DNA from: Octopus vulgaris
Taxonomy: Eukaryota
Length of the DNA stretch: 64,000 nt
Reading direction: 5' to 3'
Assembly (NCBI GenBank): GCA_951406725.2
Contig: OX597816.1
Span: 5,642,001-5,706,000 of the forward strand
The position numbers and the translations under genes are program-made. Of this stretch, positions 2,090 to 63,217 are shown one piece after another; position 1 is the stretch's first letter; each line of letters starts with the position of its first letter. Below the pieces are notes generated by a model. That model made no database searches. It saw nothing but the letters and a program-made list of their open reading frames with translations, and was not told where the DNA came from.

Positions 2090-3125
2090 TCAGGATTTGA
2101 GCACCAAGGCCCATTCGAGCAGAGAGTTATTGTTTGCGGAGACATTTCCGGGTGTGGGTGGTTTGTCCGAAACTGTTTGAAGGAATTTGTCAAAAGACTT
2201 CTTGAATTTTGTGTGGTCAGTTTCTTTTTTGACGTGTCCTGGTGTAATGTTGAAGAGAGCGGGTCCAATTGAGGTGAAATAGTTGTGCCGTATTGTCGTT
2301 ATGTGATGCGATTTAGATTTTTGTTGTGGACGGATGGCACGTGGTCCAAGCCTTGGATGTATTTTGAAGGTGATGCCAACATCATTCGGACAGTACTGAT
2401 GGAATATTTTCCACATCATACAGATAATGTAGTGTTCACGGCGTCGTTGGAGTGAATACAGTTTCAGCTTCTCTAGTCTACCCCAGTAGTCAAGGTCTGA
2501 CATGCCATCTATCTTTTTTGTGATTGACCTTTGAGGAGCTTCAATTCTCATAATATTTTGTTTTGTGTAGGGAGACCACAGTGGACAGCAGTATTCAAGG
2601 TGGGGTCGGGCAAAAGTGGAGAAGAGAATGATAATAGTGTGGGAATCTCTCGACTGGAAGGTTCTGAGAATCCAGGAACACATTCTGCGGGCCATGCCAA
2701 CTTTGCTGCTTATATGTGTAGCTCAGCTTATATTGTTGTCCACTGTTACTCCCAAGTCACTGATGTTGTTGGATGCCATGATAATTTCTCCAGAAGGAAG
2801 AGAGTATGGGAGTTTCTGAGCGTCCACCCTTCCAAAGTGGATCAGTTCGAATTTGTCTTCGTTTAGCAACATGTTATTCTTTTCCGCCCATTGGACAACA
2901 GCCAGTAGGTCTGACTGAAGGCTTATTCGGTCATCCACGCCATTGATGACCTTCTGGAGCTTGGAATCATCAGCGAAGGTTCTGATGTTACTGTGTTTGA
3001 TGGTGTCAGTAATATCATTTATGTAGATGATGAAGAGAAGTGGGCCCAACACAGTGCCTTGTGGGACACCACTGCTGACTTTGGCTGGGCTGGATTTGAC
3101 TCCTTCGACTACAACATGTTGGGTT
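2090..3125 (-). pseudogene. CR1-type reverse transcriptase, C-terminal half with one in-frame stop
   Basis: SGVPQGTVLGPLLFIIYINDI...FADDSKL...DLGVTVD...RPHLEYCCPLWSP...RLEKLKLYSLQRRR motifs. Confidence 0.92.
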
Positions 3126-4154
3126 CTTTATAATGTCATTTGTCCGACGAGTCCCCGGGAGATGGGTAAAGGGGCCATCCCTGTGCAAACACAATCTGTC
3201 TCGCTGGGAATAGCGGCAGATTTGGGGATTCCTTGTTTGAGATATTGGTGGTTTTGGTGGTGTTGTAATAGAGTATGTATTATGGTGGTTGCGGTTGTAG
3301 TTTGTGGGGATAGAGCGTTTTGTTCCAGGTGAATGGGTAAATTTGCAGTCTCTATCAGTGCATAATCTATGGCGAAGAGAATATCGGCAAACGATGGGGT
3401 TTCGAGTAGGTGTGTAGGTGCGTGTGTGAGTTGTGAGAGGTGTAGATGATAGTTTGTTGAGGTTTTGGTGACCTTTGTGACCTGTAGGAGGTAAATTCCT
3501 TGAGATAGCATTAGTAGTAGTAGTTGTAGTAGTAGTAGTAGGCAGAAGAGATGTTGACAGTGATAATGATTGAGGAGGTCGATTCCAAGACAAAGATCTT
3601 TGTGGATACATAGTGGGAGTAGTACTAGTAGTAGTAAGCAGAGGAGATGGTGTTGACAGCGATGATGATTGAGCTGCTGGGGCAGTGAAAGGAAGGGGTG
3701 GTGCTTCCTGCTGTGTGACCCTGATGACTGGGGGGTCAATCGTTTCGTTTAGCAAATCGGCCATTGTAGATGAATCAAGGAGTGGTTCATCCTGTTGTTG
3801 TTGCCGCTGAGGTTGTTGCTGCTGAAGTTGTTGTTGTTGGTGTTGTTGCCGCTGAGTTTGTTGTTGAGGTTGTTGTTGTTGTTGTTGTTGCGCCGGTGAT
3901 GCGTTCGAAGAGAAAACACATCTCAGTTTATCGAAGTGTTTATTTCTTAATTTAAAAGCAACTTCGATTTGTTTTAATTTATTTTGTATCTGCTGTTCAG
4001 ATCGAGTTTGCAAATGGTGAACTGCTCGTTTAGCAATTTCGTTCAGATACGAAGCACCTATGCTCTCTGTTTCGGTAAGGCCATGCCATGTGTTGATAAG
4101 AACGTCGACTTCATTATCAGACCAGTTTTTGTTGGATTTTTGGTGGCTAGCCAT
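3015..4154 (-). CDS. LINE ORF1-like protein: Myb/SANT-like N-terminus, polyQ, two CCCH-like fingers; C-terminus runs out of frame into RT
   Basis: 379-aa ORF containing NWSDNEVDVLINTW..RSEQQIQNKLKQI, CRYSLRHRLCTDRDCKFTH and a degenerate second copy. Confidence 0.7.
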   Translation of the reverse strand: MASHQKSNKNWSDNEVDVLINTWHGLTETESIGASYLNEIAKRAVHHLQTRSEQQIQNKLKQIEVAFKLRNKHFDKLRCVFSSNASPAQQQQQQQPQQQTQRQQHQQQQLQQQQPQRQQQQDEPLLDSSTMADLLNETIDPPVIRVTQQEAPPLPFTAPAAQSSSLSTPSPLLTTTSTTPTMYPQRSLSWNRPPQSLSLSTSLLPTTTTTTTTTNAISRNLPPTGHKGHQNLNKLSSTPLTTHTRTYTPTRNPIVCRYSLRHRLCTDRDCKFTHSPGTKRSIPTNYNRNHHNTYSITTPPKPPISQTRNPQICRYSQRDRLCLHRDGPFTHLPGTRRTNDIIKNPTCCSRRSQIQPSQSQQWCPTRHCVGPTSLHHLHK

Positions 4155-4623
4155 TCTGGTTGATATGTTTTATTAAATTTTATTTTGTTCGTTTGTTTTG
4201 TTGATTACTTTTAATTATTATTTTTTAAGAAGTATGTAGAATTGATTGTACAGAATGTTTGCTGTAATACTGAGAAATTTGTATTTGAATTATGAGCTTG
4301 TAGTTATTTTATCTTTCTTTTCTTTTCTTTTTTTCCCTCGTTTTCTAATTTTTAATGTGTGGGTGATCCTTTAGTTATCAGAAGGTGTTGGCGAAAAATG
4401 AATACTCTCTCATACGAGTGTGTGGTTTTGTTTATTTGGTCGTTTGAAAATTATGAAAATAGTTTGTGGTTAAAGAAAAGTCTACTCACGAGTTGGGAAA
4501 AAGTGAGGTTTCAAATATACAGGAATATATGTGATGGTCAATTTCGAATGTAGCCGTGAAGCTTGCTGCTGACCGGCGCGGAGAGGAGTAAAAACACGTC
4601 TTTATATTTCAGCAATCAACGGC

Positions 4624-7419: not shown

Positions 7420-7950
7420 ATTTCTTTATTGCCCACAGGTGGCTACACATAGAGGGGGCAAATAAGAACAGACCAAGGGATTAAGTCGATTATATCGACC
7501 CCAGGGCGTAACTGGTAGTTATTTAATCGACCCTGAAAGGATAAAAGGCTAAGTCGACTTCGGCGGAAATTGAACTTAGAACGTAGCGGCAGACGAAATA
7601 CCTATTTCTTTAGTACCCACAAGGGGCTAAACACAGAGAGGACAAACAAGGAAAGACAAACGGTTTAAGTCGATTATATCGACTCCAGTGCGTAACTGGT
7701 ACTTATTTAATCGATCCCGAAAGGATGAAAAGTAAAGTTAACCTCGGCGGAATTTGAACTCAGAACGTAGTGGCAGACGAAATACCTATTTCTATACTAC
7801 CCACAAGGGGATAAACACAGAGAGGACAAACAAAGACAGACAAACGGATTAAGTCGACCTCGGGGGAATTTGAACTCAGAACATAACGGCAGACGAAATA
7901 CCGCTAAGCATTTCGCCCGGCGTGCTAACGATTCTGCCAGCTCGCCGCCT
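7420..7950 (-). mobile_element. SINE family A trimer with 16-bp TSD
   Basis: TSD tacaaattggaatatt at 7403-7418 and 7953-7968. Confidence 0.88.
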
Positions 7951-12144: not shown

Positions 12145-12226
12145 CTCTCGACATATGTTTCAAAGACAACATGCTTTCATTCCAAAGGAATAAAGGGTGC
12201 ATTATGCAATCTTCTCATCAGGAAAG
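12145..12226 (-). ncRNA. Type I hammerhead ribozyme within a repeat at ~12095-12465
   Basis: CUUUC-CUGAUGA-GAAGA...UCUUU-GAAAC-AUAU-GUC-GAGAG. Stem III is the palindrome ACAUAUGU; stem I extends via CCUUU/AAAGG. Confidence 0.8.
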
Positions 12227-17137: not shown

Positions 17138-17172
<35 letters not shown>

Positions 17173-17177
17173 ATACA

Positions 17178-17235
<58 letters not shown>

Positions 17236-17283
17236 GGCGCAGGAGTGGCTGTGTGGTAAGTAGCTTGCTTACCAACAACATGG
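17236..17283 (+). mobile_element. SINE family B 5' fragment (local duplicate of 19447)
   Basis: Identical to the 19447 head, including the private variant accaacaacatgg. Confidence 0.8.
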
Positions 17284-17307
17284 TATATACATATTTATAT
17301 ATATATA

Positions 17308-17354
<47 letters not shown>

Positions 17355-17632
17355 TTAATAAGGGTGAGAGAATTAGATACTAATTTAATAGTATATTTAT
17401 TCCACACCAAGTGGCCTAGTGCTACGAGAAACCTGGATTATTATAATATTTTATAACATATTATAATATTTTCACAAAATAAATATAAGAGAGTGGTCAC
17501 TATATTGATCACTCTAGCACCAGTTAATCCAAAAGGTTTCAACCACGAAAATACATGTTTCCCATGAAAGCCAGTACGACTGTTAGCTCACACGGACAGG
17601 GCAAATAAAAAATAACAAAAATACAGATTATT

Positions 17633-17708
17633 TTGGGACAATTGTTTCGCTATTAATGAATTAAATGTAATATTACTTACAATAATCCATTTGTAGCTCT
17701 TCAGCCAA
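17633..17708 (-). ncRNA. Type I hammerhead ribozyme
   Basis: Reverse complement of the 18618-18693 motif. Confidence 0.85.
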
Positions 17709-18165
17709 GACTATCTGGATGAAATCCACTCAATCACACGCCAGATTTTACCATAACGATAAATACGCGTGCGGTTCAATTGATTACATCGGACGTTATA
17801 ATTCAAATGCCCCAACCAACAGCGCGCCAAACTCACACGGAAAACAAATACAGCATTTAGAAATAAATGCAGCATAATTATAATTAATTAATAAGGGTGA
17901 GAGAATTAGATACTAATTTAATAGTATATTTATTCCACACCAAGTGGCCTAGTGCTACGAGAAACCTGGATTATTATAATATTTTATAACATATTATAAT
18001 ATTTTCACAAAATAAATATAAGAGAGTGGTCACTATATTGATCACTCTAGCACCAGTTAATCCAAAAGGTTTCAACCACGAAAATACATGTTTCCCATGA
18101 AAGCCAGTACGACTGTTAGCTCACACGGACAGGGCAAATAAAAAATAACAAAAATACAGATTATT

Positions 18166-18241
18166 TTGGGACAATTGTTTCGCTATTAATGAATTAAATG
18201 TAATATTACTTACAATAATCCATTTGTAGCTCTTCAGCCAA
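18166..18241 (-). ncRNA. Type I hammerhead ribozyme
   Basis: Reverse complement of the 18618-18693 motif. Confidence 0.85.
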
Positions 18242-18617
18242 GACTATCTGGATGAAATCCACTCAATCACACGCCAGATTTTACCATAACGATAAATACG
18301 CGTGCGGTTCAATTGATTACATCGGACGTTATAATTCTAATGCCCCAACAAACAGCGCGCCAAACTCACACGGATAGGCCACTTGGTGTGGAATAAATAT
18401 ACTATTAAATTAGTATCTAATTCTCTCACCCTTATTAATTAATTATAATTATGCTGCATTTATTTCTAAATGCTGTATTTGTTTTCCGTGTGAGTTTGGC
18501 GCGCTGTTGGTTGGGGCATTTGAATTATAACGTCCGATGTAATCAATTGAACCGCACGCGTATTTATCGTTATGGTAAAATCTGGCGTGTGATTGAGTGG
18601 ATTTCATCCAGATAGTC

Positions 18618-18693
18618 TTGGCTGAAGAGCTACAAATGGATTATTGTAAGTAATATTACATTTAATTCATTAATAGCGAAACAATTGTCCCAA
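18618..18693 (+). ncRNA. Type I hammerhead ribozyme
   Basis: UUGG-CUGAAGA-GCUA..(long stem II)..UAGC-GAAAC-AAUU-GUC^CCAA: canonical core, GUC cleavage triplet, palindromic stem III ACAAUUGU. Confidence 0.88.
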
Positions 18694-19150
18694 AATAATC
18701 TGTATTTTTGTTATTTTTTATTTGCCCTGTCCGTGTGAGCTAACAGTCGTACTGGCTTTCATGGGAAACATGTATTTTCGTGGTTGAAACCTTTTGGATT
18801 AACTGGTGCTAGAGTGATCAATATAGTGACCACTCTCTTATATTTATTTTGTGAAAATATTATAATATGTTATAAAATATTATAATAATCCAGGTTTCTC
18901 GTAGCACTAGGCCACTTGGTGTGGAATAAATATACTATTAAATTAGTATCTAATTCTCTCACCCTTATTAATTAATTATAATTATGCTGCATTTATTTCT
19001 AAATGCTGTATTTGTTTTCCGTGTGAGTTTGGCGCGCTGTTGGTTGGGGCATTTGAATTATAACGTCCGATGTAATCAATTGAACCGCACGCGTATTTAT
19101 CGTTATGGTAAAATCTGGCGTGTGATTGAGTGGATTTCATCCAGATAGTC

Positions 19151-19226
19151 TTGGCTGAAGAGCTACAAATGGATTATTGTAAGTAATATTACATTTAATT
19201 CATTAATAGCGAAACAATTGTCCCAA
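19151..19226 (+). ncRNA. Type I hammerhead ribozyme
   Basis: Identical to 18618-18693. Confidence 0.88.
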
Positions 19227-19377
19227 AATAATCTGTATTTTTGTTATTTTTTATTTGCCCTGTCCGTGTGAGCTAACAGTCGTACTGGCTTTCATGGGAA
19301 ACATGTATTTTCGTGGTTGAAACCTTTTGGATTAACTGGTGCTAGAGTGATCAATATAGTGACCACTCTCTTATATT

Positions 19378-19446
<69 letters not shown>

Positions 19447-19863
19447 GGCGCAGGAGTGGCTGTGTGGTAAGTAGCTTGCTTACCAACAACATGGTTCCGG
19501 GTGCAGTCCCATTGCGTGGCACCTTGGGTAACTGTCTTCAACTATAGCCTCGGGCCGACCAATGCCTTGTGAGTGGATTTGGTAGACGGAAACTGAAAGA
19601 AGCCCGTCGTATATATGTATATATATGTGTGTGTATGTGTGTGTATATGTTTGTGTGTCTGTGTTTGTCCCCCCGACATCACTTGACAACCGATGCTGGT
19701 GTGTTTACGTCGCCGTCACCTAGCGGTTCGGCAAAAGGGACTGATAGAATAAGTACTGGGCTTACAAAGAATAAGTCCCGGGGTCGATTTGCTCGACTAA
19801 AGGCGGTGCTCCAGCATGGCCACAGTCAAATGACTGAAACAAGTAAAAGAGTAAAAGAGTAAA
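19447..19863 (+). mobile_element. SINE family B, full length
   Basis: GGCGCAGGAGTGGCTGTGTGGTAAG tRNA-like head, body with internal TA/GT tract, (GTAAAAGA)n tail; many copies in the window. Confidence 0.88.
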
Positions 19864-19878
19864 GATATATATATATAC

Positions 19879-19917
<39 letters not shown>

Positions 19918-19918
19918 C

Positions 19919-19952
<34 letters not shown>

Positions 19953-19956
19953 ATAT

Positions 19957-20595
19957 AAAAAGTCAAAATGAGGGTGAAAAAATTGGATATTAATTTAATA
20001 ACATCAATTTAAACACCAGTGGCCTAGCGTATAAAAGACTGAGATTCAGTAAATATTATTAATACACAAATATGAGGGAGAATCCACTATGTGGACGCTC
20101 TTACGCTAGATATAGATCCACAAAGGGACTCAACCACTAAGAATTTTTCTCAAGAAAAATTTAGCACGCTAAGAACGTAAGCAGGCAGGACAAATGAAAA
20201 ATAACAAAAATATAGATTAACTCCATACAATTGTTTCACTGTTAATAAATTATGCAATTTTACTTACATAATTAATCCTCAGATCATCGGTGGAGTAAGT
20301 CAAAATATAATTTGTCGAACTGCACGCTATATATTAACACGAGGTCAGAGACACGAGCAGTTAGGCCGATTATATTCACAGTTACATTCTAATGCCCTCG
20401 TTCTAGAGCGCCAAATTTCCGAAAATAAATACTGCATAAGTAATTCACTGCAGTAGTTTACGCCGGTTTGAGAACATATTAATTTATAATTAAAGTCAAA
20501 AAGAGGGTGAAAAAATTGGATATTAATTTAATTTAATAACACAAATTTAAACACCAGTGGCCTAGCGCAAAAAGACTGAGATTCAGTAAATAGTA
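19957..20595 (-). mobile_element. Diverged relative of the 533-bp hammerhead element (1.2 units)
   Basis: 19961 recurs at 20494 (period 533). Shares agggtga..caccagtggcctag and other blocks with the 17346 family. Confidence 0.8.
20221..20295 (-). ncRNA. Hammerhead motif (core CCGAUGA, probably mutated)
   Basis: CUCCA-CCGAUGA-U-CUG..CAG-U-GAAAC-AAUU-GUA-UGGAG. Confidence 0.7.
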
Positions 20596-20611
20596 TTTCA
20601 TACACATTATA

Positions 20612-20710
<99 letters not shown>

Positions 20711-26735: not shown

Positions 26736-27327
<592 letters not shown>

Positions 27328-43927: not shown

Positions 43928-44345
43928 AGGTGGCGAGCTGGCAAAAACGTTAGCACGCCGGGCAAAATGCGTAGCCCTATTTCGTCTGCCGTTACGTTCT
44001 GAGTTCAAATTCCGCCGAGGTCGACTTTGCCTTTCATCCTTTCGGGATCGATAAACTAAGGACCAGTTACGCACTGGGGCCGATATAATCGACTTAATCC
44101 GTTTGTCTGTCCTTGTTTGTCTCCTCTGTGTTTAGCCCCTTGTGGGTAGTAAAGAAATAGGTATTTCGTCTGCCGCTACGTTCTGAGTTCAAATTCCGCC
44201 GAGGTCGACTTTGCCTTTCATCCTTTTGGGATCGATAAATTAAGTACCAGTTACGCACTGGGGTCGATGTAATCGACTTAATCCGTTTGTCTGTCCTTGT
44301 TTGTCCCTTCTGTGTTTAGCCCTTTGTGGGTAGTAAAGAAATAGG
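43928..44345 (+). mobile_element. SINE family A dimer
   Basis: Head plus second headless body; imperfect TSD ggtatgtactctgttg / ggtatgtacccggttg. Confidence 0.88.
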
Positions 44346-44633
44346 TATGTACCCGGTTGCTCTAATGATAATTTGTATGAAGGGGGAGTTGTTTGCTGAG
44401 TAATGGATTTGGAAACACCTTATCAAGGGTCCATCGATATCGATTTTTCCTTGTACTTTTCTAACCACATTGGTGTCAAGTGGGCTGCTGACTTCCACAA
44501 CTGAATATATTTTTTCCATGTAGTCCCACACATTATCTAACATGTGTTTTAACTTGGTGGCTGTTTTAATTTTTAATTTCCTCGAATATTCTTTTGGTCC
44601 AACGGTCTAAATCTAATCAACTTCGTCTGTGGA

Positions 44634-44950
44634 TGTTATTTAGCCCTAGGAAACACCGTTTCCTGTTGTACTTGACACATTTCTTGTGTTCTTATGTTTT
44701 CTTCAAAGTGAAGATAAGTACCTCCACCCAGCATAAACCAGTGAATGTATTCCACTTGAAATATATATGTTTTCAAAGGCATCGACAGCTATCAAGCCAT
44801 GCTACTCCAGACTGATGATGAGCAATGACTCTGAAACTAGTCTCTGGATGCTGGCTTTGTTGGGTGGAAGTGCGTATCTTCACTTTGAAAACTTAAGGAC
44901 ATAATGTGTCAAGACAAACAGGAAACGGTCTTTCCTAGGGCTAAATAACA
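44634..44950. mobile_element. Inverted-repeat element enclosing a hammerhead
   Basis: tgttatttagccctaggaaa...tttcctagggctaaataaca, ~105-bp imperfect arms. Confidence 0.8.
44806..44848 (+). ncRNA. Type I hammerhead ribozyme (U.U at 10.1/11.1)
   Basis: UCCAGA-CUGAUGA-U-GAG-caauga-CUC-U-GAAAC-UA-GUC^UCUGGA; palindromic ACUAGU stem III. Confidence 0.82.
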
Positions 44951-44966
44951 GTAGCATTCTTTCCTT

Positions 44967-46348: not shown

Positions 46349-46511
46349 TACACATTTTTATGTATATTCTCTCCTATATATTGTGTGTATGTTTATTTAT
46401 AGGAAAGTTCTGAAGATATAATGACTAATTTGTGGGGGTTGAAATATATATACACGTTTCATTTACATTATTTACATTTGACGGATATTTGTCCTCATCT
46501 TGTTTGTTGTT

Positions 46512-46557
46512 AACACAACGTTTCGGCTGATATACCCTCCAGCCTTCATCAGGTGTC
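46512..46557 (-). ncRNA. Minimal type I hammerhead motif (best copy of this family)
   Basis: GACAC-CUGAUGA-A-GGCUG-gaggguauau-CAGCC-GAAAC-GUU-GUGUU. Confidence 0.8.
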
Positions 46558-46841
46558 TTGGGGAAATTTCGAACTTGGGTTCTCATTCCTAAGGAATTTT
46601 TAGATGTTATTATCATTGCGAGAGCAGTGCATGCCATCAAAGTGACACTGGGGTCAAATATACGAAGCCCAGTATATCCATCAGGACTACCCGTCTGATA
46701 AGGGTACACTAGGCACATGCATCACAACCATATGTGCGCAACATGGTGATCTCATATCAAGATAAACAGCGCATGACCTTGCAGGTGGATCCCAGTTAGA
46801 ATTTTCTTCTGGTCGAGTAACCCATTAGATGTTGTTGTTGA

Positions 46842-46923: not shown

Positions 46924-48385
46924 TTTCAGTAGTTTTATTTTTACAGCGTGCTTTCACTTCACTACCGAGCGCAGCTCTGTGTGCCTTAGATATGTGCTGT
47001 GATTTGTTGTGATGCTCTGATGGTTATTGTATGGAAAGTGTTCTGCATAGGATGTGTGCAGTGCCTAGTAGTGCAATTTTCTGTATGTTATATGTGTTTG
47101 TAAGTCCTGGTGTTTTTGTTATGTATTAGTCTGAATATTTTTTTATCATGCCTAATGCACCTACTATGATAGGAATTGTTTCTGTTTTTAGATTCCACAT
47201 TCTGGTTACCTTTATTTCCAGGTCTTTGTATTTTGAGAGTTTCTCCATTTCTTTTAGAGACACGTTGTCATCTGCCGGTATTGATACATCAATTAGAAAG
47301 CATTTTTTTTCTTCATGATCTCTGACAACTATATCTGGTCTGTTGGCCTTAATTTCTCTATCTGTGTGTATCAGCATATCCCAGAGTATGGTTGCTTTCT
47401 CGTTTTCTGTGACCTTTTCTGGTGTGTGCCTATACCATCTTTTTTCTGTTGTTATTCCATAATGTTGGCATAGCTTCCAATGTATGTAGGTTCCAACTCT
47501 GTCATGTCTGTGAATATATTCCTTCTTAGCCAGGACTGGGCAGCTAGAGATAATATGATTTATTGTTTCTTGTCCATCTCCACATATTCTGCAGTTATTT
47601 GTTATATTTCTTTTCATTACATGTTTTTGGTAATTTCTGGTGGGGAGGCTTTGGTCTTGTGCTGCAATTAAAAATCACTCTGTCTTTGCTTTGAGTCCTG
47701 AGTTTCTCAACCATTGCTGGGATTTTTCTTTGTCTATTCTTTTGCTATTTCTTTGCCTATTTCTATTTCGTTTAGTCCAGTATTTGCCATGAAGGGACTT
47801 TTCTTGCCATCGTTTTATCATGGTTCGTTGCTGTTCTATTTTTAGTTTGGATTTCATTTGTTTTATAGCTTTTGTTGTTTCTTCTTCTTCTTCTTCTTCT
47901 TCTTCTTCTTCTTCTTCTTCTTCTTCTTCTTCATATTTATTAGGTGGTATGGTTTCTTGTTTGTATTTGTCAGCTTCCTTAAATACTGAGAACAGTTTTT
48001 TGTTTTGCTCGTGTTTTGCCGCTATTTGTATCAGTTTTCCTTCATTCTGAAGTAGATATTTTTGCAGTCCTATGGGGGTTATTTTATAGTAGTTTTCCTG
48101 CTGTATAAGGCCTCTACCACCTTCTATACGTTGTATATATAGTCTTTCTATGTCAGATTTTGGGTGATGCATCCTAGATCTTGTCATTATTTTTCTTGTT
48201 TTCCTATCTATTTTGGTCAGTTCATTTAGTGTCCAGTTAAGGATATTGTAGCTAACTTATAACTGGGACAGCTAAAGTGTTAATACCTATTATCTTGTTT
48301 TTAGTATTGATCTAACTTCTCTATAATATTCTTTTTTTATTTTCTCTTTCATTTGTGTGTGTTGTGTCTTATCTAGTTCAATTAT
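46922..48385 (-). mobile_element. 5'-truncated R4/Dong-clade LINE in (TAA)n
   Basis: HPKSDIERLYIQRIEGGRGL; CCHC CRICGDGQETINHIISSC; RLE NRPDIV..IDVSIP..EKLSKY. (TTA)n tracts lie on both sides. Confidence 0.9.
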
Positions 48386-48459: not shown

Positions 48460-50092
48460 TCACTGCCTGGAATCGAACTCGGAGTCGTGGGGTTAGTAAC
48501 CCGCGCTCTTAACCACTACATTATATGTCCATGGGTATATGGCGTAGTGACCTGAATAGTAATAACAATAATAATAATAACATCGAAAAATACCTTAGGA
48601 ATGAGAACCCAGGTTCGAAATTTCCCCAAGACACCTGATGAAGGCTGAAGGCTGGAGGGTGTATCAACCGAAACGTTGTGTTAACAATAAACAAGATGAG
48701 GACAAATATCCGTCAAATGTAAATAATGTAAATAATTCCTCATCTCTTAGATATAGAACTATAAACATGTTTTATTATTACTGCTGGACATTGAATATGG
48801 TCAGAGTTGAGTACGGAATAAAATTGATATAAGTAATTATTGATTTCAAATTTTGGCACGACCGGCTATTTCGAGGAGGGGGATGAGACGATTCCATCGA
48901 CCCCATTTCTCAACTGGTACTTATGTTGTCGATCTTGAAAGGGATGAAAGGCAAAGTCGATCTCAGTGGAATTTGAACTCTGAACATGAAGGCAGACGAA
49001 ATGCAGCTAAGCATTCTGCCCGTCGTGCGAACCGTTCTGCCATATCACCGCCTTTATCTAATTAATTATTAGCAAGTATTATTGTCGGCAATCTCATTTG
49101 TTTCTCATCAACCAGACATGTGAAGATGTGCATAATAAGGATTCTTAGCATAGAAATTGGTTCACTAATTTTTGTGGTAAGAAATGAATTATATTAAACC
49201 CGATAATGTGCAAAGTAAAAATAATTGATTTCGACAAGGTTTGAATATAAAAAGACGCGAGTAAAGAACACGTATCAGTTTATTTAGCAACACTTTAACG
49301 ATTCTACCAACCAATTGTAATTATAACAAGCAATTTCTCGAGCTGCAAATACAGTTATTCCCCAATTTCTATTTTATGCTTCAGTTCGTGGAATGACAAA
49401 TATATGCACGCTTTAATAGTCTGGAAACTTTAGAATCCTACCAAACAAGTGAATATTATGCTATCCATACATAATAATAACAAGTTAAGTTGAAGACGTT
49501 ATTTTTATAATTAAACTCGGATTGAAATTTCTATAGTAGCGTTATATAATGTTCACATTTACATAAATGTGACTTGGAGAAAAACTGAAAATTTAACCAA
49601 TAACTTTTATCATTAATCTTCGTATGATCGTTTCTATCTGAAATGATATCAAAATAGCGTTGGCCGTTGTCTAGAATTCAACGATTTTAAATATAAGCGA
49701 GACGTGCATCGTTATTGGAAATAAATATCTCAGAATTATAGATCAATAAGGATATTTGTTGAAATTGCAATCATAATACGAAAGTTACGTGGGTGTTCAA
49801 TTTTAAGCCAGCATTAAAATAAATAAATATTCTGAAACTAATGTTAAACAATACAATTCCACAGACTTCATCGGAGTAATTCTTACAATTATATGGAAGT
49901 TAACTTTCAGACACCGGCAGCATGTTACAAGAACATTTCACTAGTAAGTGCATTAAAAGTTGCTATGACTATAATTTAAAACATTTAGAAATGTTCATTT
50001 TACTTCAAATTTGTAGATTTATAAGAATATTTCAGTGTACAAGAGAGGAGGACTGGTTAGCATCTTTCAGAAGCTTTGCATAATGGAATATA

Positions 50093-50700
50093 AGGTGGCG
50101 AGCTGGCTGAACCGTTGGCACGCCAGACGAAATGCATAGCGGTATTTCGTCTGCCGTTACGTTCTGAGTTCAAATTCCGCCGAGGTCGACTTTGCCTTTC
50201 ATCCTTTCGGGGTCGATAAATTAAGTACCAGTTAAGCACTGGGGTCGATATAATCGACTTAATACCTATGTCTGTCCATGTTTGTCCCCTCTATGTTTAG
50301 CCCCTTGTGGGTAATAAAGAAATAGAAATAGGTATTTCGTCTGCCGTTACGTTCTGAGTTCAAATTCCGCCGATGTCGACTTTGCCTTTCATCCGTTCGG
50401 GGTGAATTAAATAAGTACCAGTTACGCACTGGGGTCGATATAATCGACTTAATCCGTTTGTTTGTCCTTGTTTGTCCTCTCTGTGTTTAGCCCCTTGTGA
50501 GTAGTACAGAAATAGGTATTTCGTCTGCCGTTACGTTCTGAGTTCAAATTCCGCCGATGTCGACTTTGCCTTTCATCCGTTCGGGGTCGATAAATTAACT
50601 ACCAGTTACGCACTGGGGTCGATGTAATCGAATTAACCCCTTTGTCTGTCCTTGTTTGTCCCCTCTATGTTTAGCCCCTTGCGAGCAATAAAGAAATAGG
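50093..50700 (+). mobile_element. SINE family A trimer
   Basis: Head plus two headless bodies; TSD ggaatataa. Confidence 0.88.
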
Positions 50701-50896
50701 AATATAAATGTCTTTTGAATACCATGACCACACGGCTTTCACAATACGACTTCTATAAAAATCCACCTACTCATTTGTTTTTTTTACAAATGACACTGTT
50801 TTGACAAACTCTGCTAAATGTTATAGTTTTAATATCTCTCTTCATTTAACATGAATTACAATTAACAATAGTTATAATCGATAATAATTGTAACCA

Positions 50897-61538: not shown

Positions 61539-62439
61539 ATGTATACAACAAGCTTCTTTCAATTTCTGTCTACCAAATCCACATTATAATCTGTTTACGA
61601 ATCCAGTTAAACCGTTCATACATTATTAATGGTTCGAATATCTCGCCCACATCGCAATATTTCTGGTCCTTATACTCGTTTTCTGATCGATTCTCGTTGT
61701 TAAATAAGTGGAACTCCAGAAATCAAACACTTTTCATCTCAAAAGATATTAATTAGCAGGTCGTGAAAAGCAAGAAGGACCTGAAAAGTAAAAAGGAAAT
61801 TTCACGAAATGCACTTTATAGTCCCGTAATGATGGAATAAATCACTTCTGTGCTGAGTGTGTGTGCAGTGTTTCTATTATGCATTAGATGAAGAGGAGGC
61901 CATTTCCGACTTTCCGAAGCATTAGACAAACCGTGTGTTCCAGTCAGTCACTAAAGCATCAATTTGTTAGTCGAAGCATATGATGGATTACGTTTAATCG
62001 GATTTTGTACGAGAAAGGTTACTGCGAGAAGCATGTAAGATAAAATAAATGAATGTAAACCAGTATTAATTTTACTGTGATATATCCATTATTCGCAGAG
62101 GTGTTTGGTGAACTACGATATATCGGAAAGTTATCAGTACAACTGCAACGTTTTCGGCTTCTAAGAACGTCGCACAAGTTTAATACAGTTGTTAAGATGA
62201 GCAATTTATTCCGTAGCAACCAAGTGGAATTTTCTTGAAACTAATTTGGTGCTGTACACTCTGCCTCAAAAATATTGTCCATGAATTGCGATCACCATTT
62301 CTTACCTCTGTTGTAGAGAGCAGCAGTGAAATGAGGTCGAATCGTTTCAGGTATTGGACCATCGATCGGTATCCTTGATTTGTCACATATCGGTGAAGTT
62401 CCAGTTTACATGTTGGCTTCCAGTGACCATGTATATCTA

Positions 62440-63217
62440 ATTCTTTTTCTACCCACAAGGGGCTAAACATAGAGAGGACAAACAAAGACAGACAAATGGA
62501 TTAAGTCGATTATATGGACCCCAGTGCGTAACTGGTACTTAATTAATCGACCCCGAAAGGATGAAAGGCAAAGTAGACCTCGGCAGAACTTGAACTCAGA
62601 ACGTAAGGGCAGACGAAATACCTATTTCTTTATTACCCACAAGGGGCTAAACACAGAGGGGACAAACAAAGACAGTCAAACGAATTAAGTCGATTATATG
62701 GACCCTAGGGCGTAACTGGTACTTATTTAATCGACCCCGAAAGGATGAAAGGCAAAGTCGACCTCGGCGGAACTTGAACTCAGAATGTATCGGCAGACGA
62801 AATACCTATTTCTTTATTACCCACAAGGGGCTAAACACAGAGAGGACAAACAAAGACAGACAAACGGATTTAGTCGATTATATGGACCCTAGTGCGTAAC
62901 TGGTACTTATTTAATCGACCCTGAAAGGATGAAAGGCAAAGTTGACCTCGGCGGAATTTAAACTCAGAACGTAGCGGCAGACGAAATACCTATTTCTTTA
63001 TTACCCACGAGGGGCTAAACATAGAAGAAACAAACAAGGACAGACATAGGTATTAAGTCGATTACAGCGACCCCAGTGCGTAACTGGTACTTAATTTATC
63101 GACCCCGAAAAGATGAAAGGCAAAGTCGACCTCGGTGGAATTTGAACTCAGAACGTAACAGCAGACGAAATACCGCTAATCATTTCGCCAGGCGTGCTAA
63201 CGTTTCTGCCAGCTCGC
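62440..63217 (-). mobile_element. SINE family A tetramer with 17-bp TSD
   Basis: TSD cagtgaccatgtatatc at 62421-62437 and 63225-63241. Confidence 0.9.

Follow-up and report, generated by a model that had tools for sequence, protein, structure and literature searches.

We report that a diverged, hammerhead-bearing repeat in the genome of Octopus vulgaris is probably a non-LTR retrozyme, inserted in (TA)n, copied by Penelope-like enzymes and carrying a ribozyme predicted to be weakened. The repeat occupies positions 19958..20606 of the window, the whole stretch of 64,000 nucleotides that was analysed (contig OX597816.1, positions 5,642,001 to 5,706,000); we refer to it as B, and to the sister repeat that begins at 17346 as family A. 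Because its predicted fold has been kept despite about 30% sequence change and its mutated core is shared with relatives, B likely belongs to a known kind of mobile RNA with a weakened ribozyme.

The features of B and its immediate surroundings are as follows.
19958..20606, minus strand: element B, 1.2 units of a 533-nt non-coding repeat.
19958..20490, minus strand: the full unit (33% GC; predicted fold -132.7 kcal/mol, z -5.2).
20491..20606, minus strand: a partial second unit, forming a pLTR-like terminal direct repeat 89% identical to 19959-20068.
20220..20296, minus strand: a type I hammerhead, the only one in B, with the core CCGAUGA at 20290-20284.
20191..20219, minus strand: a U-rich segment that adjoins the hammerhead on its 3' side, hardly differs between A and B and marks the depth peak among relatives.
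20020..20140, minus strand: a predicted 3' branched domain with compensatory pairs 20105/20028, 20103/20030 and 20102/20031.
20454..20484, minus strand: a 31-nt block beside the unit junction, present in B and missing in A, which offsets net losses of about 31 nt elsewhere.
19865..19957, unstranded: a (TA)n microsatellite adjoining the 3' end of B.
20606..20680, unstranded: (ATT)n followed by (TA)n, adjoining the truncated 5' end of B.

In the inferred RNA sense the 3' end of B lies at 19958 and the 5' truncation near 20606-20612. The terminal repeat is a single duplication of about 115 nt (89% identity) and the sole basis of a period within the window; the offsets along it are 533, 538, 537, 538 and 539, of which 533 is correct for its start. 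Neither family has a long reading frame, the longest ATG-started frame being 54 aa in A and 30 aa in B, and nine stop-free frames tested against Pfam (five in A, four overlapping B) gave no match. No frame for a reverse transcriptase (RT) or GIY-YIG domain was found in or beside B; across the window, 105 of the 156 candidate frames were scanned against Pfam and gave three matches, none of them to GIY-YIG, and no autonomous partner of B was identified. The U-rich segment, for which a search returned five matches against none in 100 shuffles, is the most conserved non-catalytic segment. It contains AUUUUUG (U-rich on the RNA strand), which we take to resemble an Sm-binding site. The 31-nt block sits just past the end point of the insertions. 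As insertions of Penelope-like elements (PLEs) carry a 'tail' of 30-40 bp (10.1101/2021.04.23.441226), the block may, by its size and as a matter of speculation, be a captured tail of this type.

Family A lies next to B and has a more elaborate layout.
17346..19385, unstranded: family A, about 1.9 tandem units (17346-18374) joined 5'-to-5' with 1.9 inverted units (18375-19385).
C3 at 17704 and 18237 on the minus strand and at 18622 and 19155 on the plus strand: four identical hammerheads with CUGAAGA, G10.1-C11.1 and GUC.

The four hammerhead units of A are 99.6-100% identical across the tandem and inverted halves, a layout consistent with twin priming on a multimer or a circle, or with the insertion being very recent. 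The inverted half ends about 130 nt before the usual 3' end. A 113-nt duplication (98%; 17172-17284 and 19383-19495), made up of (TA)n and the first ~50 bases of a SINE-like element, flanks family A on both sides and may represent either a long target-site duplication or an assembly artefact.

A and B are colinear, with 342 of 487 aligned columns identical and an alignment score of 299.5 against 57+/-14 for 100 shuffles (maximum 89.5); MAFFT gives 317 identical columns of 497, and overall identity ranges from 64 to 70% across alignments. Both families end at a homologous position beside (TA)n. The first-pass annotation had described B as a diverged sister family with the same 533-bp period. 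Homology and colinearity bear out the relationship, whereas the period itself, within the window, rests on one duplication and 1.2 units, with no array. The families are separated by 22 indels, amounting to 46 nt on each side, so that the net loss of B along the unit is made good by the single junction block.

The same annotation had raised the possibility of selection on unit length, which the comparison does not bear out: the match is a net zero of 22 indels, and relatives have junctions of other lengths. A net-zero outcome from 22 indels of random sign has p=0.010 and an outcome within 5 nt p=0.053, as a single post hoc comparison, and the B junction variants listed among relatives close at 532-533, with listed indels of 1-2 nt; these points speak for a length held near 533 nt. 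Against it, the offsets in B itself range from 533 to 539, the junction segment is 28 nt long in A and 57 nt in B and, as read by eye, 35 nt in loose-end relatives from two sequencing runs (X11 and X7), and published retrozyme units span 51-972 bp (10.64898/2026.07.22.740005). Since the match arises from offsetting indels and junction lengths vary among relatives, selection for length as such is not established, and we regard this additional claim as unlikely. Shared ancestry with offsetting indels is the most likely reason for the equal lengths of A and B.

The evidence that carries our reading of B comes from predicted RNA structure. The hammerhead strand folds more stably than its complement in both families (-150.5 vs -114.7 kcal/mol in A, -132.7 vs -108.7 in B), with z-scores of -5.9 in A and -5.2 in B and none of 100 shuffles as stable; the plus strand of B has a z-score of -2.9. 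Circular folds were no more stable than linear ones and are uninformative on circles. In a forward comparison, A was folded alone and its 161 confident pairs were mapped onto B by a sequence-only alignment. Of these, 26 have both bases altered in B, and pairing survives in 19 (null 45%, p=0.008), in Watson-Crick form for 18 of them where chance would give 8.2 (p=0.0004). Beyond the hammerhead, 14 of 19 such pairs persist against 44% expected (p=0.005); within it 5 of 7 do, with p=0.22 for the retained fraction and 0.008 for the number of Watson-Crick pairs. All four alignment methods retained 16-20 of the double changes. The reverse comparison, B fold onto A, is weaker: 11 double changes were kept against about 8 expected, which is not significant under three of the four alignments (p=0.13-0.22, linear), while the total number of pairs kept exceeds the null (p<=0.011). 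Such an asymmetry fits B being a decayed copy. The earlier proposal of covariation under selection for RNA structure therefore stands in the forward direction and less firmly in the reverse one, at the strength of two independent full sequences without phylogenetic control, which is below R-scape grade. An RNAalifold consensus and its pair counts are fitted to both sequences, and the evidence is accordingly taken from the one-sided mappings.

Decay of this particular copy is visible at nine positions where 90-100% of the depth of its relatives shows another letter. Placing the family letters in B improves the predicted fold at eight of the nine, and together they contribute -24.5 kcal/mol, where random changes of matched type give +0.3+/-5.9 (p=4e-5). 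Furthermore, the family polymorphisms at 20170 and 20405 are complementary, changing A-U to G-C. Taken as predictions, these results support selection on RNA structure that reaches beyond the ribozyme.

At the level of single stems the picture is mixed. The counts for stems I and II derive from a structure typed by hand from the RNAalifold consensus, with one stem I pair added. Three of the four stem I pairs of A have changed on both sides and are still paired, one is unchanged, and B gains a fifth, which agrees with the initial description of a replaced stem I with pairing kept. Stem II had likewise been described as replaced, and here the description fails: in its long helix of 16 pairs, 12 never vary, three vary on one side and one on both, while the first pair has gone from G10.1-C11.1 to U.U. 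GAAACAAUUGU, noted earlier as invariant, is indeed identical in all five hammerheads of A and B.

The B hammerhead reads, on the minus strand, ACUCCA CCGAUGA U CUG ... CAG U GAAAC AAUU GUA UGGAGU, and consists of stem I (ACUCCA/UGGAGU), a 46-nt stem II, GAAA and a 2-bp stem III closed by the palindromic loop AAUU. By descriptor match it has the type I arrangement, with three stems round the core and stem I open. It departs from the canonical core (CUGANGA ... GAAA ... UH), which A retains as CUGAAGA, in that CCGAUGA carries a U4>C change at 20289. The 10.1-11.1 position, usually a G-C pair and G-C in A, is a U10.1.U11.1 mismatch in B. Nucleotide 17 is A in B (GUA) and C in A (GUC), so that the cleavage triplet of B is GUA and not GUC; cleavage of B is predicted after A17 (20226). 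Rfam returned no hammerhead at gathering score in the window and none at E<=10 in 17300-20700, and its E-value matches all lie on or beside (TA)n or other low-complexity tracts. Since the canonical-core family A was missed as well, the Rfam blank is uninformative on the core of B.

In the isolated motif, stem I of B is predicted to form with probability 0.89 and stem II with 0.70, and the presence of C4 tips the core towards an alternative pairing with loop III (0.66, against 0.06 with U4). In the whole predicted unit stem I forms with probability 0.02 in B, 0.24 once the nine family letters are restored and 0.84 in A. A natural U4C variant is reported to be far slower in vitro but still sufficient for viroid infectivity, and U10.1-U11.1 is the best tolerated mismatch and also occurs naturally (PMC3088659). 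Given the predicted misfolding of stem I and core on the one hand and these tolerated variants on the other, we read the B ribozyme as likely weakened, not certainly dead. The 2-bp stem III is present in the sequence, with a predicted formation probability in monomers of 0.00-0.03, and the invariant palindrome ACAAUUGU is predicted to form an 8-bp self-duplex (-8.4 kcal/mol). Both predictions are in line with the dimeric mode of cleavage described for animal type I hammerheads (PMC4209133; PMC7229834).

Relatives of B were sought among the contigs of 24 listed sequencing runs, none of them on record as RNA (X11 may be RNA), in which strand and circular forms are not readable. Part of B is present in 20 of the 24 runs, from four organisms, the best run holding 38% of the words of B, and four runs from three organisms (X2, X3, X7 and X11) were mapped on one B unit. 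In all four, contigs link 20490 to 19959 across a single T, which gives a closed unit of 533. In X3, (TA)n directly precedes 19959 in 23 contigs, at the same point where A ends. A loose contig end in X11 matches the A hammerhead. Three scans of collections of metagenome and viral contigs gave no match to the family motifs.

At 20289, C4 accounts for 59-71% of the depth in three runs from three organisms, and U4 for 32% in X2, 29% in X3, 41% in X7 and 0 of 17 in X11; these shares come from contig depth, favour reference-like contigs and concern the close subfamily. Total depth at this position is 2,690 in X2 and 5,157 in X3, against 20-78 for each listed single contig of X2, and a total so far above single contigs argues that numerous copies carry C4, even if copy number cannot be read off from depth. 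The first-pass annotation had noted U4>C as a mark of this copy and asked whether the consensus restores CUGAUGA. The substitution is present but is no private lesion, since C4 is the majority in the close family, and with that majority the consensus of the close subfamily keeps C. Depth at the core in X2 is about 90-fold below the peak at 20192-20209, so a wider superfamily must be larger, and it includes forms with CUGAUGA that are seen as loose contig ends. Among the relatives, GUC replaces GUA in 12-41% of the depth, and the stem I letters 20222 and 20224 vary; 40 of the 79 variant positions were listed. A-to-I editing was rejected as a source of the family variation, as the changes in X2 are balanced between the strands (10 T>C, 9 A>G). 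CpG decay is not favoured as the origin of the U4 copies, since CpG sites account for only 3 of the 18 C>T or G>A changes listed; the CpG partner position 20288 does not appear among the 40 variant rows listed of 79.

An abundance of C4 copies could also come about if the B lineage were a dead relic, its pairing selected before U4>C arose and the C4 copies multiplied as satellite or segmental DNA duplicates. Three departures in or near the core (C4, U10.1.U11.1 and A17) occur together, CUGA mutants are poorly active in a mutational scan (PMC9901934), the C4 letter favours the alternative core pairing in the isolated motif, and the B locus has one hammerhead only. However, the family-majority letters stabilise the predicted fold, the polymorphisms at 20170 and 20405 remain complementary, and many copies have one common starting point next to (TA)n, a pattern that independent insertion events would be expected to leave; moreover, U4C and U10.1.U11.1 are each known in active natural hammerheads (PMC3088659). 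We consider a dead relic very unlikely.

The coexistence of C4 and U4 forms also invites a model in which catalytically poor C4 copies are cheaters whose cleavage is carried out in trans by sister RNAs that have U4 and an identical stem I. A double hammerhead would take its core from one RNA and its cleavage site from the other, and the divergence of stem I would insulate B from A. The invariant self-duplexing palindrome, the near-absent monomer stem III and the dimeric cleavage of animal type I hammerheads (PMC4209133; PMC7229834) accord with such a model, as do U4 shares of 29-41% of depth among close relatives in three runs. Yet stem I letters 20222 and 20224 vary, linkage of U4 to the CUCCA arm cannot be read from the contigs, and RNAs of different loci may never meet; we hold the model to be quite unlikely.

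The retrozyme reading, which we prefer, agrees with the known class in most respects. Tandem type I hammerhead units are known as retrozymes, which have been proposed to derive from PLEs, and the animal non-LTR retrozymes share with B head-to-tail non-coding units that each bear a type I hammerhead, low GC, highly self-paired predicted RNA, a short stem III with a tetraloop, co-occurrence with PLE-type hammerheads and proposed mobilisation by PLEs (PMC7229834; 10.64898/2026.07.22.740005). Both in the window and in all four mapped runs, the units of B, a few hundred bp long and bearing a type I hammerhead, succeed one another head to tail; B is also non-coding at 33% GC, below the 50% of the class, and its RNA is highly self-paired by prediction (z -5.2). 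Its unit of 533 nt is longer than the 170-400 nt RNAs of PMC7229834 and lies within the 51-972 bp of the preprint (10.64898/2026.07.22.740005). Unlike those retrozymes, these families have a very long stem II (46-49 nt), and most close relatives of B a U4>C core. The preprint's rule for 'active' elements asks for two consecutive complete motifs; family A has them and B, with a single hammerhead at its locus, falls outside the rule. Lacking both the canonical core and the second hammerhead, B is best filed as a retrozyme variant. A close parallel is the axolotl HHR_Amex2, which also has a 2-bp helix III with a tetraloop and U.U at the base of helix II and is weak as a monomer and better as a dimer; it differs in its unit of ~350 bp, its vertebrate host and, in the passage describing it, the absence of a reported U4 change (PMC7229834). 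The natural U4C and U10.1-U11.1 variants each keep some activity and were reported separately (PMC3088659), whereas B joins both with GUA, and its C4 is common to many copies. Within the open-access literature we found no paper that describes retrozymes of cephalopods or a retrozyme family in which U4C is fixed, and neither 'hammerhead' nor 'ribozyme' appears in the available text of the O. vulgaris repeat paper or its one supplement (PMC13282606).

The proposed link to PLEs is one of layout and target. PLEs are characterised by partial tandem copies, an inverted 5' copy and a bias towards microsatellites (10.1101/2021.04.23.441226), and A and B resemble them in the partial pLTR tandem, 5' truncation, microsatellite insertion, a type I hammerhead and, in A, the inverted 5' copy (10.1101/2021.04.23.441226; PMC4209133). 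Together with the 3' end shared by A and B next to (TA)n, this is the layout of a non-autonomous PLE. Naiads favour (TA)n as well but are without hammerheads (10.1101/2021.04.23.441226; PMC4209133). As an autonomous PLE would encode RT and GIY-YIG domains, for which B has no frame, and as the B hammerhead is not the PLE minimal form, B differs from autonomous elements. A related possibility is that B is the truncated terminal repeat (pLTR) of a longer autonomous PLE. PLE pLTRs do bear type I hammerheads (PMC4209133), and some long contigs fit part of the unit (X2 record 12, of 1288 nt, and X3 records 21 and 23). On the other side, head-to-tail succession of the unit is seen both in the window and across four of four runs, searches by ATG frames and Pfam found no coding remnant, and the B core lacks the PLE minimal pattern of an extra nucleotide with G10.1-C11.1 that is seen elsewhere in the window; a pLTR origin therefore seems highly improbable to us.

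The window holds further hammerheads and mobile elements.
46461-46617, 26762-26918 and 48570-48733, minus strand, and 27164-27322, plus strand: four copies of a PLE-type minimal hammerhead, each of ~160 nt and 87-93% alike.
1-399, 7420-7857, 43978-44348, 50141-50704 and 62433-63174: tandem arrays of a 183-184-bp unit, 2-4 copies each.
2093-4169, minus strand: a broken LINE-type element with an RVT_1 match at 2726-3127 and a weak Myb-like match at 3018-4169.
47129-48256, minus strand: a broken LINE-type element with a zf-RVT match at 47129-47674.

The four PLE-type copies have an extra A before G10.1-C11.1, the palindrome AACGUU and a trinucleotide microsatellite ahead of each; the copy at 26853 has U4>C, and that near 48640 a 7-nt core duplication. 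The named relatives of a neighbouring LINE, ~54-63% identical to it, come from sea cucumber, shrimp, corals, an anemone and a tunicate. A fold-back element at 44630-44955 on the plus strand (108-bp inverted repeats, 81%, z -17), single-copy in the window, contains at 44812 a hammerhead-like type I motif with CUGAUGA, U10.1.U11.1 as in B, the palindrome CUAG and a 5-bp stem I. The motif alone folds near chance (z -1.0), and a MITE-like outline that encloses a ribozyme motif is unusual. A further hammerhead match at 12221 folds no better than shuffles (z -0.76) and is probably due to chance.

For B as a retrozyme the following course of events may be envisaged. A and B descend from one colinear unit whose predicted fold has been kept on the hammerhead strand. 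The minus strand would be transcribed through head-to-tail units, and the hammerhead would cut slowly, probably as a dimer through the ACAAUUGU palindrome since stem III is not predicted to form in the monomer, yielding a 533-nt monomer or circle or leaving much of the RNA uncut. A Penelope-type endonuclease would nick (TA)n and its reverse transcriptase prime at the AU-rich unit junction, found downstream of the cleavage site at a distance of 268 nt in B and 291 nt in A; such a step would yield a fixed 3' end, variable 5' truncation, copies of more than one unit and the inverted 5' piece of A. C4 occurs in many copies in three organisms, and the lineage would have been amplified with it, in which case fast self-cleavage would not be required. 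The B copy described here has since decayed by at least nine private changes.

The role of the hammerhead in Penelope-type elements and retrozymes has been called unclear (10.1101/2021.04.23.441226), and eight of nine frog elements tested did not cleave in vitro (10.64898/2026.07.22.740005). We put forward, as a tentative and on balance doubtful extension, that the B lineage spread to many copies in several related animals after its core had been crippled (U4C, U.U and GUA) while keeping its 533-nt fold, dimer palindrome and cleavage site, either as a substrate-only cheater cut in trans by U4 sisters or because mobility needs the fold but little or no self-cleavage. The element class to which B is assigned is already known. 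With compensatory changes spread over the whole unit, selection seems to act on the RNA in its entirety and not on the ribozyme alone. The presence in one genome of A, with a canonical core, and of B, amplified with a weakened one, offers a natural test of cleavage rate against spread.
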